A stretch of 35,365 nt of DNA from Armatimonadota bacterium (GTDB lineage: Bacteria; Sysuimicrobiota; Sysuimicrobiia; Sysuimicrobiales; Humicultoraceae): assembly GCA_052386995.1 (NCBI GenBank), contig JBQTJP010000109.1, positions 1 through 35,365 on the forward strand. Direction: 5' to 3'. The notes under the pieces were generated by a model, which saw nothing but the letters and a program-made list of their open reading frames with translations, was not told the origin of the DNA and did no database searches. This document shows, piece after piece, positions 30,296 through 32,650 of the stretch; positions within the stretch are counted from its first letter, which is position 1; each line of letters opens with the position of its first letter. The position numbers and the translations under genes are program-made.

Positions 30296-30829
30296 CTACT
30301 TCAAGCACAGCAGAACTGCCGTCAGCGTCAGCCCATCGGTAATCGCCCGGTCCCTGACCATTTGCCAGATCTCTTCCTTTGAGAATGCACGGACCTCGAG
30401 CACCTCGCCCGTATCGAACGCGCCCGAGTTCTCGGTTGCCCGGCAGCGGACAATGTGGAAGACCTGGTTGGCCATCCCGTTGACGGGGTGATAGGAGTAG
30501 ACATGCTCGCCCTCAGTGGAGTGGTAGCCTGTCTCTTCCAAGACTTCTCGCTGTGCGGCTTCGGTGATCGACTCACCGTCCTCAACATATCCGGCGGGCA
30601 GCTCCCATGACGTGGCGTCCGTCGCGTACCGGCAGATACGGGCGAAAAGCACGCGGCGATCGGCGGTCTCCGCTACGGCCGCGACGGCGGAGCGGTGGAA
30701 ATCCAACAGATGGTGCTGTTCCACGATGCTGCCATCGGGAAACCGCACTCTGTCCACGTAGAGATTCACCCACGGGCTCTGGTAGATGACAGTCCTGGAC
30801 AGTCGTTCGGGCTTCGCGTATGTCTCCAC
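30296..30829 (-). CDS. Nudix hydrolase (ADP-ribose pyrophosphatase-like)
   Basis: Complete Nudix box GYVEDGESITEAAQREVLEETGY, WELPAG, ITDGLT; GGAGG RBS before GTG 30829. Confidence 0.88.
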   Translation of the reverse strand: METYAKPERLSRTVIYQSPWVNLYVDRVRFPDGSIVEQHHLLDFHRSAVAAVAETADRRVLFARICRYATDATSWELPAGYVEDGESITEAAQREVLEETGYHSTEGEHVYSYHPVNGMANQVFHIVRCRATENSGAFDTGEVLEVRAFSKEEIWQMVRDRAITDGLTLTAVLLCLK

Positions 30830-30881
30830 GTGAGCCTCCGGTCGGGAGTTATTGTTCGTGTTTCGACTCGGTCTGATGTTA

Positions 30882-30897
30882 TGAAAGCGCCGCGCCT
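30882..30897 (+). repeat. Left sub-terminal inverted repeat of the IS
   Basis: TGAAAGCGCCGCGCCT is the exact reverse complement of 32178-32193. Confidence 0.95.
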
Positions 30898-30959
30898 CCA
30901 GACCGCGAAGATCTTGTCGGTTACCAGAACGGCAAGATCCGCAGAGAGGAGGCGCAGCG

Positions 30960-32003
30960 ATGCAATACATAGCCTTCGATGTGCACAAGCGCTACACCTG
31001 GGCGCGGGTGGAGCGCGCGGACGGAACGGTCGTGCGGGAGAAGAAGATCGTCCACGAGAGTGGAGCGCTACGGCAGTTCTTGGCCGGCTGTGAGCCGGGC
31101 TCACCCGTGGCCGTGGAGACGGTCGGCAACTGGTACTGGATCGTGGACGAAGTGGAGGCAGCCGGGTGTTGTCCCCAACTGGTACATGCTCGCAAGGCGA
31201 AGCTAATGCTGGGGACGGTGAACAAGACGGACCGCCTGGACGCTCGAGGACTGGTGCGGTTACAGCGGACGGGGACGCTCCCGGTGGTCTGGATTCCACC
31301 TCGCGAGCTGCGGGATGCGCGCGAGCTGCCACGCACCCGGATGGTGCTGGTGGCGCAGCGCACGCGGCTCAAGAATCGGATCCACGCCACGCTGAACAAG
31401 TACGGCCTCCTGCTGCCTGACGTCTCGGACCTCTTTGGACAGCGCGGTCGTCACGAACTGCGTGCGTGCTTGACTGAGCTCCCGCCCCAGACGGCCTTCG
31501 TGGTCTCGCGACTGCTCGAGCAGGTCGACGGACTGGATCGGGACATCGAGGCGCTGGAACAGCGGATGGGCGAGCTCTTCGAGGTGGACGACGCGACCCG
31601 GTTGCTGCTGACGCTCCCAGGGGTAGGGTTCATCCTGTCGATTGTGCTCCGCACGGAGATCGGGGACGTCCGGCGCTTTGCCAGCAACGAGCACCTGGCG
31701 GCGTATGCGGGCACGGTGCCGCGGGTGCACGACTCGGGTGGGCGCCAGCACTATGGGCCCGTGCGGGCGGATGTCAACCGGTACCTGAAGTGGGCCTTTG
31801 TCGAAGCGGCCAACGGCGTCTGCCGGAATCGTCGTCGCAAGCACGCTCAGCGGCACATCAGCCGGGTGTACGAACGGGTCACCACGCGCAAGGGACACCA
31901 GAAGGCAATCGTGGCGGTGGCCCGGCACCTGGCGGAGGCCACCTACTGGATGCTGACCAAAGGAGAGTCGTATCGCGAACCCGCGGCGTCCAGGGGAGCG
32001 TAA
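30960..32003 (+). CDS. IS110 family transposase/recombinase (DEDD RuvC-like plus Tnp domain)
   Basis: AFDVHK (D), VAVET (E), KTDRLDA (D,D), [21 protein letters not shown] (conserved Ser), AVARHL; AGGAGG RBS; 347 aa, uninterrupted. Confidence 0.96.
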
Positions 32004-32125
32004 GCGCGTACTCGGTCCTGAGCCCATTGAGGCTCGTCGGTCTGATTGCGACACGCTCCCAGGACATCCTCATGCCCTTGCTAAGGGCGAAGAGATGGAT
32101 CCGGCGAATCGGGTTGAGGGACGTC
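31988..32125 (+). ncRNA. Predicted bridge/seek RNA of the IS1111-type element (boundaries approximate)
   Basis: Nested stems enclose ACTCGGTCC (32010-32018) and TCGGTCTGAT (32037-32046), matching the two target flanks, and AGAGATG (32091-32097), matching the element end plus core. Confidence 0.75.
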
Positions 32126-32172
32126 GAGGGACATAGGAGGGACACACAAAGGAGAAGGTCGGTCAACGGGGG

Positions 32173-32178
32173 TTGACA
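32173..32178 (+). promoter_or_regulatory. Outward-facing -35 hexamer at IS right end (junction promoter half)
   Basis: Perfect TTGACA exactly 17 nt before the GATG core. Confidence 0.65.
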
Positions 32179-32193
32179 GGCGCGGCGCTTTCA
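32178..32193 (+). repeat. Right sub-terminal inverted repeat of the IS
   Basis: AGGCGCGGCGCTTTCA is the exact reverse complement of 30882-30897. Confidence 0.95.
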
Positions 32194-32236
32194 GAGATGG
32201 ACCGAGTTGCCGGCCCTTCTCCCTCGGCGAACAGCC

Positions 32237-32650
32237 TTATGGGGTCGCACCGGACTGATGCTCATAGTTCCGAATGATCATAGCGCTGGCTGGCTGCATG
32301 CCGAATATAGAGTAGAACCGCTGCAGCTGTGGATCGCAGACGGTATCAACCATGTAAAGCTTCCCCAGACGGCGCAGTATTCTTCGCATGAGTTCGCTAC
32401 CGATCCCTCGTCGCCGGTAGGCTGGCAAGACCTCTAGAAACGGGACGTAAGCGCTCAGGATTCCATCTGTAACGGCCGTAACAAATCCTACGACGTCACC
32501 AGACACGTCGTCGATAGCGAGCACAAAGACATCGCCGCTCGCCAAGAGTCTCCGATGCATGGCAGGCGTCGGCGGGTTTGGCCAACCCTCAAAGAAACCC
32601 CGAAGTCTCCATGCGTCAGTGCCCTCGAGCGTCTCAACGTATCTGATCAT
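32237..32650 (-). CDS. GNAT family N-acetyltransferase
   Basis: VVGFV, LEVLPAYRRRGIGSELM acetyl-CoA motif, RFYSIFG; GGGAGG RBS. Confidence 0.9.
   Translation of the reverse strand: MIRYVETLEGTDAWRLRGFFEGWPNPPTPAMHRRLLASGDVFVLAIDDVSGDVVGFVTAVTDGILSAYVPFLEVLPAYRRRGIGSELMRRILRRLGKLYMVDTVCDPQLQRFYSIFGMQPASAMIIRNYEHQSGATP

Follow-up and report, generated by a model that had tools for sequence, protein, structure and literature searches.

The window analysed here, i.e., the whole stretch of 35,365 nucleotides, contains an insertion sequence whose transposase gene is followed by a long non-coding region with two predicted RNA domains, and the question raised by this locus is what the second of these domains does. 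A first-pass annotation, prepared from the sequence alone, had claimed that it carries, on an unpaired strand of a three-way junction, a guide to the right end and core of the element, that is, to the left half of the predicted circle junction, and had proposed a comparison of this strand with the element ends across homologs. Our analysis makes it likely that the element, which is intact and of the IS1111 type, encodes a two-domain bridge RNA, the second domain of which reads the joined ends of the element itself.

In the proposed mechanism, the 3’ non-coding region would encode a two-domain bridge RNA (a ‘long seekRNA’), domain 1 (31993-32060) of which would read the target, while domain 2 (32066-32119), a three-way junction, would read the joined ends of the element. 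The single-stranded linker of domain 2 (32091-32098) would carry the sequence of the right end and core as a donor guide, and the segment 32066-32072 would pair with the top strand over the left junction, covering the TG of the target, the core, and the first two or three bases of the left end. What the sequences show is conservation, covariation between guide and end, and compensatory pairs; production of the RNA, its binding by the recombinase, and its pairing with DNA are inferred from them.

The Insertion Sequence and Its Site

The insertion sequence is intact, has a length of approximately 1.32 kb, and extends from about 30876 to about 32198. The transposase (recombinase) gene occupies positions 30960-32003 of the plus strand, on which all other features of the element described below are also located, and forms an intact reading frame of 347 amino acids, a length within the 330-350 amino acids typical of the IS1111 group. 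The protein matches the Pfam families DEDD_Tnp_IS110 (PF01548, the RuvC-like N-terminal domain; E = 1.2e-14) and Transposase_20 (PF02371, the C-terminal domain; E = 3.9e-20), as well as NCBIfam NF033542, ‘IS110 family RNA-guided transposase’ (237 bits, cut-off 140). Candidate residues D7, E53, D91, D94, and S259-G260 were placed by motif; their roles are presumed to be those of the corresponding residues in the family. Residues 251-260 contain the C-terminal motif G-x-x-P-x4-S-G, in the form described for the IS1111 group (PMC11187229). A weak NCBIfam match of residues 124-265 to a TIGR-Tas RNA-guided endonuclease, at 23 bits with a cut-off of 100, is far below the threshold.

At the left junction (30876-30881), the core dinucleotide AT (30876-30877) is followed by GTTA (30878-30881), the left terminal extension of the element, which forms the right donor half in the circle; the preceding TG (30874-30875), including the G directly before the core (30875), belongs to the target. 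The left subterminal inverted repeat TGAAAGCGCCGCGCCT (30882-30897) is complementary at 16/16 positions to the right one, AGGCGCGGCGCTTTCA (32178-32193), which is within the range of 7-17 bp given for the IS1111 group. The right end (32194-32199) consists of the extension GAG (32194-32196), the core AT (32197-32198), and the first target base (G32199), directly after which the right flank GACCGAGT begins (32200-32207). Beyond the repeats, the left side reads GATGTTA (or ATGTTA) and the right side GAGATG, with only GATG common to both junctions. The terminal extensions are asymmetric (7 or 6 bp on the left, 3 bp on the right), and there is no target duplication beyond the shared core. Non-coding sequence amounts to 196 nt on the 3’ side (32004-32199) vs. 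84 nt on the 5’ side (30876-30959). As a long downstream non-coding region and long repeats define the IS1111 group in the relevant sections of PMC11208160 and PMC11187229, the element is assigned to this group, all sequence-level features of which it possesses.

The motif TTGACA (32173-32178), adjoining the right inverted repeat on its inner side, is the likely -35 box of a promoter that would be formed by end joining in the circle. Among the relatives described below, TTGAC(A) is present directly inside the right repeat in 57/64 cases, 15-22 nt from the outer end of the repeat (all 57 within 34 nt), a position that fits the -35 part of a promoter whose other half would be supplied by the left end in the circle. 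Junction promoters are known for IS1111/IS110 elements (PMC11187229, PMC12288879).

The insertion site is a small palindrome, ACTCGGTC-TGATG-GACCGAGT, with a NUDIX gene on one side and a GNAT gene on the other, each encoded by the minus strand. There is one full copy of the element in its own assembly (326 contigs, 93% complete), and the same palindrome is occupied by close relatives in other assemblies (L004, L094, L097, L098, L103; such numbers denote loci of relatives throughout). No empty target site was found by a pattern search of the genome (93% complete; the reversed control gave three), and no orthologous empty site among 40 relatives searched with the right flank, the matches being to the neighboring permease gene only. 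A search of sequencing runs for this stretch gave no RNA run, and the contigs of four DNA runs contained neither a joint across the element nor a circle junction. In the likely source run, X1, one contig (depth 17.2) continues through the element to 32208 and then has 19 letters unlike the window, and another (depth 11.4) begins at 32179 and then agrees with the window; this break at 32179-32208 may reflect another insertion site or variation between strains.

An isolated copy of the last 21 bp of the element (the right repeat plus GAGACG), followed by the same right target half, GACCGAGTAC, was found in G000 (contig C81, 17743-17771; L002, about 1486-1535). It is located just after a Fic/DOC-like open reading frame and has no transposase, but the sequence before it, GCGTAC-GGTCCTG, is similar to the part of the bridge RNA that contains the right-target guide. 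An internal deletion in a second copy of the element would leave such a remnant.

Relatives of the Element

A scan of one genome per species yielded 80 loci with 42-79% protein identity to the transposase (set 1, genome contigs). The relatives share a common layout, flank-TGA[T/A]-N3-4-TGAAAG on the left and TTGAC-repeat-TTTCA-NNN-ATG-flank on the right. Their ends were set by the inverted repeat, without use of the bases under test, and the positions were hand-picked from motif candidates. Both the loop and the end were found at 63 loci of set 1, of which 59 are non-identical; L022 was excluded due to a 1-nt insertion. For set 2 (metagenome contigs) 80 loci were fetched, 60 of them usable and 51 both new and non-identical, with one clade dominating.

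Two peculiarities concern the left ends and targets of the relatives. First, the left ends of L004 and L095 read GATGTTATGAAA-TGAAAGCG, in which eight bases (TTATGAAA) covering the extension and the beginning of the repeat are duplicated. Second, the clade including L013, L015, L023, and many metagenome loci inserts in a palindromic repeat resembling a tRNA T-arm (left flank GGTTCGAATCCCGTT); ARAGORN called no tRNA genes at these targets in the three named loci.

The Predicted Target-Binding Domain

Among the relatives, the 3’ region can be aligned well. Domain 1 (31993-32060) consists of an outer stem, an invariant inner CGCG/UGCG stem, and an apical hairpin (32019-32036). RNAalifold applied to 36 relatives predicted 22 pairs, 14 of them with compensatory changes on both sides. 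The predicted right-target guide ACTCGGTCC (32010-32018) is complementary to the flank 32199-32207, and the predicted left-target guide TCGGTCTGAT (32037-32046) is identical to 30868-30877. Both relations are also seen across 48 non-identical rows of relatives: the 3’ loop strand is identical to the left flank and core at a mean of 8.65 of 12 positions, vs. 5.09 in permuted pairings (maximum 5.60), while the 5’ loop strand, compared with the reverse complement of the right flank, gives exact runs with a mean of 5.0 nt, vs. 0.72 permuted (maximum 1.62), and runs of at least 6 nt in 24/48 rows. As the loop strands follow the flanks, domain 1 would read the target, and the donor would be left to domain 2.

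A natural retargeting was observed in L027 and L030, whose right-target guides (CGGCATCC and CCGCATCC, respectively) match their own flank GGATGCCG, while their sisters (L019, L029, L034, L036, L059, and L069) target G-AGC. Despite the retargeting, the donor-domain linker of L027 and L030 is unchanged (AG), its flank-matching bases (see below) not having followed.

The Fold of Domain 2

Domain 2 is composed of the 5’ strand of a closing stem (ATCCTCA, 32066-32072), hairpin 1 (32073-32089), the unpaired linker A-GAG-AT-G-G (32091-32098), hairpin 2 with a conserved GACGAA-like loop (32099-32114), and the 3’ strand of the closing stem (TGAGG, 32115-32119). The elements identified by the first-pass annotation, namely, the closing stem CCTCA/TGAGG (32068-32072 and 32115-32119), the hairpins GCCCTT-gct-AAGGGC (32074-32088) and ATCCGG-cgaa-TCGGGT (32099-32114), and the identity of AGAGATG at 32091-32097 with 32193-32199, were all exact, and its three-way junction coincides with the minimum-free-energy fold of 32063-32125. 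The energy of this fold is -20.7 kcal/mol (z = -0.75; 35/200 shuffles at least as stable), and the whole 196-nt 3’ region has z = +0.56. An Rfam scan of 30700-32400 gave no family matches, the best E-value, 1.1, being for an unrelated family.

On plain MAFFT alignments, RNAalifold recovered only hairpin 1 of domain 2, owing to the variable distance of the 3’ strand of the closing stem. We therefore derived a covariance model from four seed sequences folded as the three-way junction of the first-pass annotation. It matched domain 2 once in the window (32066-32120) and at 68 loci of relatives, 69 matches in all. The resulting alignment (A5) is fitted to the structure, which flatters its pairing figures: 91.9% of cells are paired vs. 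77.6% in shuffled alignments (reached by 0/500 shuffles), changes on both sides are seen in 11/14 pairs, and the covariation score is 0.324, vs. 0.107 for shuffled alignments and 0.015-0.043 for slid partners.

All three helices contain compensatory pairs. In hairpin 1, pair 12/21 is represented by GC (35 cases), CG (22), and UA (5), and pair 11/22 by CG (56), UA (4), and GC (2). In hairpin 2 (helices 3 and 4 of the model) the corresponding counts are CG 47, GC 5, UA 1 and CG 36, GC 5, UA 2, with, for example, a swap of CCG/CGG to GGG/CCC in L025, L026, L035, and L037. Both sides of the closing stem (helix 1) vary in 5/5 pairs, one of which has GC 23, CG 16, AU 7, and UA 4; variants of this stem include CCTCA/TGAGG, CATCA/TGATG, TATCA/TGATA, AATC/GATT, GCTCA/TGAGC, and ACTC/GAGT. 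A model-free stem script gave the closing stem a mean score of 4.56 vs. 3.93 (maximum 4.29) and 4.10 (maximum 4.40) in two kinds of controls with 300 replicates each.

The unremarkable fold z-score, together with the frequency of the 7-mer AGAGATG in the window, which is at chance level, would suit a conventional regulatory element in the 3’ UTR of the transposase mRNA (a terminator, stabiliser, or attenuator) that matches the right end by coincidence in this copy. However, no U-run follows the hairpins, the domain is retained down to 42% protein identity, and the guide covaries with the end in two data sets, as described in the next section; we give this explanation hardly any credence.

The Linker and the Right End

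After hairpin 1, all relatives have the sequence GCG-NA-NNN-RYG. In the element studied here, the linker begins with AGAG, corresponding to the right end (the left donor), which is followed by the core AT, an invariant G, and G32098. Identity with the right end exceeds the 7-mer of the first-pass annotation, as the same nine nucleotides, AGAGATGGA, are present at 32091-32099 and 32193-32201. Being of the same sense as the right end, the linker would pair with the bottom strand. AGAGATG occurs five times in the window, vs. 3.63 expected (31/100 shuffles reach five), and the 9-mer AGAGATGGA twice, vs. 0.21 expected (3/100 shuffles reach two). Judged from the window alone, neither the 7-mer match nor the fold energy stands out from chance, and of these figures only that of the nine-nucleotide identity is unusual; support for the guide in domain 2 is comparative.

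When the linker hexamer NNN-RYG was compared with the six bases after TTTCA in set 1, the match was exact at 46/59 loci, had one mismatch at nine, and more at four; in set 2, the two hexamers are identical at 50/51 loci. This comparison, the one proposed in the first-pass annotation, shows that the linker follows the right end and supports the earlier claim of an unpaired junction strand guiding to the right end and core. The agreement spans at least six kinds of hexamer over both sets. The variable linker columns of set 1 match the right end in 58/59, 51/59, and 54/58 cases (permuted means 29.6, 23.7, and 48.6), values reached by 0, 0, and 2 of 10000 permutations, respectively, although these counts are not probabilities, because the relatives are not independent. 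The pattern used to find the loop fixed R-Y-G at columns 6-8, so that only the choice between T and C (and between A and G) is informative there.

When mapped on a tree of 58 transposases, 14 changes fall on the right-end triplet and 13 on the loop triplet. The linker and the end agree in the states GAG, GAT, TAG, TAC, and TAT, as well as the replacement of ATG by ACG in L004, L020, and L005 and by GTG in L033. The misses in set 1 include L005 (CAG against TAG), one clade with TAT against TAC, L044-L046 (ATG in the loop, AAG at the end), and L010, which has an altered end. According to these data, the programmable bases are 32092-32098, and, for this subfamily at least, the covariation speaks for the extra domain as a working donor guide.

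Several loci deserve separate mention. In L044, L045, and L046 (right end TAC/TAT-AAG, left junction TGAAC) the core is AA at both junctions and the linker says AT, while the left-target guide says TGAA; the core thus agrees with the target guide and disagrees with the donor guide, which suggests that a core mismatch is tolerated or that insertion occurred at an off-core site. In L010 the terminal six bases of the right end (about 1726-1732) are GGGTCG instead of GATATG, which is kept by the sister L011 and by the loop; the right end of L010 is damaged or rearranged. The linker guide of L022 carries its 1-nt insertion at about 1850 (TAGcATG), and the copies in the same assembly, L019 and L076, are intact.

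These data bear on two further explanations. Domain 2 could be a scaffold, a protein-binding site, or a processing signal, the ends being read by the recombinase via the 16-bp repeats and the likeness of the linker having no pairing role. The short seekRNA of ISEc11, lacking domain 2, was sufficient (PMC11187229), the long inverted repeats defining IS1111 elements could be protein sites, and the loop of hairpin 2 and the GGCGAA motif are conserved in the manner of protein-contact elements. What a scaffold leaves unexplained is that the three variable linker bases and the T or C of the core follow the right end through the states GAG, GAT, TAG, TAC, TAT, ACG, and GTG, and we consider it improbable.

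Alternatively, the linker could act at the DNA level, as an internal pseudo-end (a second right terminus) for alternative circles or modular transposition, similar to the A’/B’ boxes of ISPpu9; the two copies would then stay alike because they are cut by the same enzyme. ISPpu9 indeed makes several circles from duplicated end boxes (PMC12288879), the identity is in the same sense and extends to flank-like bases, and the genome contains, at another place, an isolated 29-mer resembling the right end. However, no inverted repeat adjoins the linker, which is the single-stranded part of an RNA junction with three covarying helices, the shared identity is only 8-9 nt, and none of the contigs of the four DNA runs is joined across an alternative end (a weak point, since these are contigs only). 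Such a pseudo-end is therefore, in our opinion, highly improbable, and a donor guide in domain 2 is the preferred reading.

Linker Bases Beyond the Core

The agreement between the linker and the right junction continues past the core into the target. The linker base after ATG (G32098 here) is identical to the first flank base after ATG at 36/58 loci of set 1 (permuted mean 24.7; reached by 7/10000 permutations) and at 44/51 loci of set 2 (31.2; 0/10000). The next linker base (column 32099) equals the second flank base at 36/58 loci of set 1 (20.6; 0/10000), a signal that was not replicated in set 2, with 8/51 matches vs. 6.4 permuted (1540/10000). In this element, A32099 matches the flank. Perfect matches to the flank dinucleotide are found in several lineages (GA, AC, AT, AG, TA, GC, and CC), and in the nearest relatives with the same target (L094, L097, L098, and L103) the linker has AC opposite the flank ‘ga’. 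The first flank-matching position is supported by these comparisons as a likely feature of the guide, and the second, which tracks the flank in set 1 only, as no more than a possible one. Since its last one or two bases match the right target flank, the linker would be fully paired only on the junction of the right end with the flank, in a handshake-like manner.

The Closing Stem as a Candidate Right-Donor Guide

According to the first-pass annotation, a partner right-donor guide was not clearly visible, TCAT (32070-32073) and CATA (32132-32135) being named as the only hints. Our analysis yielded a candidate, 32066-32072, which overlaps the former, while CATA lies in an unconserved spacer. This strand, ATCCTCA, is antiparallel-complementary to TGATGTT on the top strand of the left junction (30874-30880). 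The pairs formed by the strand in the window are those of TCA with TGA, of C32068 with G30878, and of A32066 with T30880; C32069 and T32067, opposite T30877 and T30879, respectively, are mismatched, and five of eight positions pair. The TCA of the closing stem is opposite the invariant TGA of the left junction.

In 38/44 rows of relatives, the base that directly follows the core finds its complement in the fifth base of the strand as counted from the hairpin (permuted mean 12.1; 0/1000). Both sets were then pooled (89 loci), and the 65 loci in a common register, giving 27 distinct combinations, were analyzed, 24 in another register being omitted. Opposite the first base after the core there are 20 Watson-Crick and six G-U pairs (permuted mean 10.3; reached by 0/5000 permutations), opposite the second base 15 and three (8.6; 21/5000), and opposite the second core position 12 and none (7.6; 20/5000), this last position being mismatched in the remaining 15/27 combinations. 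In L119 and L139 of set 2, the closing-stem strand and the left junction pair over seven bases. The same strand is, besides its complementarity to the left junction, constrained by the closing stem of the RNA.

It is plausible that 32066-32072 serves as a right-donor guide (RDG) with handshake bases, and bases 32066-32069 are probably programmable. Such a layout corresponds to that of the RDG-core-handshake strand of IS621. The 16-bp inverted repeats may, as suggested in the first-pass annotation, contribute the rest of the donor recognition. As the candidate RDG is part of the closing stem, this stem would have to open on DNA binding. A further step would be to regard the donor domain as tuned to integrated junctions in addition to the circle junction, with a handshake on the other strand and an RDG locked in the closing stem as a conformational switch. 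We offer this only as a tentative and rather doubtful suggestion; if it is true, the ‘long seekRNA’ would be a genuine bridge RNA for two substrates and would have a control step that IS621 lacks.

Other segments of domain 2 were considered as guides and rejected. ATAAC/ACATC upstream of the closing stem (32064-32068, the complement of GATGT) is not a right-donor guide, because in the relatives it is a conserved GGGACAT-like motif independent of the left-end bases. The loop of hairpin 1 varies independently of the ends, and that of hairpin 2 is conserved.

Comparison with Known Systems

RNA-guided recombinases of the IS110/IS1111 type are under development as programmable tools for genome insertion, and nearly all mechanistic work concerns RNAs of the IS621 type. 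For the IS1111 group, a limited literature search yielded a single experimental study, which does not settle what the RNA does outside the target guides, and no paper testing an IS1111 donor-binding loop. In that study, Siddiquee et al. (2024; PMC11187229) described seekRNAs of ISEc11, ISPa11, ISKpn4, and ISPst6, with short forms of 70-100 nt and long forms of 145-170 nt. An 82-nt seekRNA of ISEc11 with target guides only was sufficient for transposition; what the long form does is, according to the authors, unknown. As the short form sufficed, certain IS1111 elements, at least, may be able to do without a donor domain.

Like these seekRNAs, the RNA predicted here originates from the 3’ non-coding region, and the top-strand target match in domain 1 lies 5’ of the bottom-strand match. 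Also shared are the terminal extensions, with a left one of about 7 bp and a right one of 3 bp, and a junction promoter (a candidate here). Domains 1 and 2, as predicted from the sequence, span about 128 nt, in comparison with 70-100 nt and 145-170 nt for the two seekRNA forms. The relevant sections of Siddiquee et al. (2024) give no function for the part beyond the short seekRNA, whereas here the guide in this extra part covaries with the end.

Durrant et al. (2024; PMC11208160, section 12) state that the donor-binding bases of many IS1111 bridge RNAs are located in a multi-loop, and name ISCARN28, ISAzs32, and ISPa11 among six such elements (Extended Data Fig. 10c). The element studied here resembles them, as judged from the published text description: the RNA is encoded after the recombinase gene, within the right end, the subterminal inverted repeats are long, and the donor-binding bases occupy a multi-loop rather than an internal loop. 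The IS1111 cases of that work came from manual inspection of six elements, whereas here the relation between guide and end was assessed on 59 + 51 relatives of one subfamily. The architecture of domain 2, non-standard according to the first-pass annotation, is so in comparison with IS621, but not with IS1111, for which the multi-loop had already been reported (Durrant et al., 2024; PMC11208160). Domain 2 is a new, well-supported example of the IS1111 bridge RNA described in 2024, not a new kind of system. Together with about 110 relatives, the element provides a clean comparative case of a programmable donor guide in a three-way junction, useful for annotating IS1111 elements and for picking an IS1111 system to test; the known picture is unchanged.

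Of the features of a bridge RNA, both a target-binding loop with guides to both target strands and a donor guide matching the left donor and core were found. A simple internal loop of the IS621 type, with guides on both sides, was not; instead, domain 2 has one unpaired guide strand in a three-way junction. In IS621, core-adjacent bases matching the other substrate are termed handshake guides and favor the forward reaction (PMC11208158, sections 11-12; PMC13626964). As in the IS621 donor-binding loop, one guide here has the sense of the left donor and core and another (a candidate) is complementary to the right donor, and core-adjacent bases match the target rather than the donor. The IS621 loop, a simple internal one with a CT core, is encoded upstream of its gene, whereas the domain described here is a three-way junction encoded downstream of the gene, with the core A[T/A]. 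In IS621 the bottom-strand guide lies 5’ of the top-strand guide; here the order is reversed, and the candidate top-strand guide, unlike that of IS621, is predicted to be base-paired in the free RNA. Moreover, in the cited sections the handshake guides of IS621 adjoin only the top-strand guides (RTG/RDG), whereas here the flank-matching base follows the bottom-strand guide. Thus, judging by its sequence, domain 2 would work like the IS621 loop without sharing its architecture.
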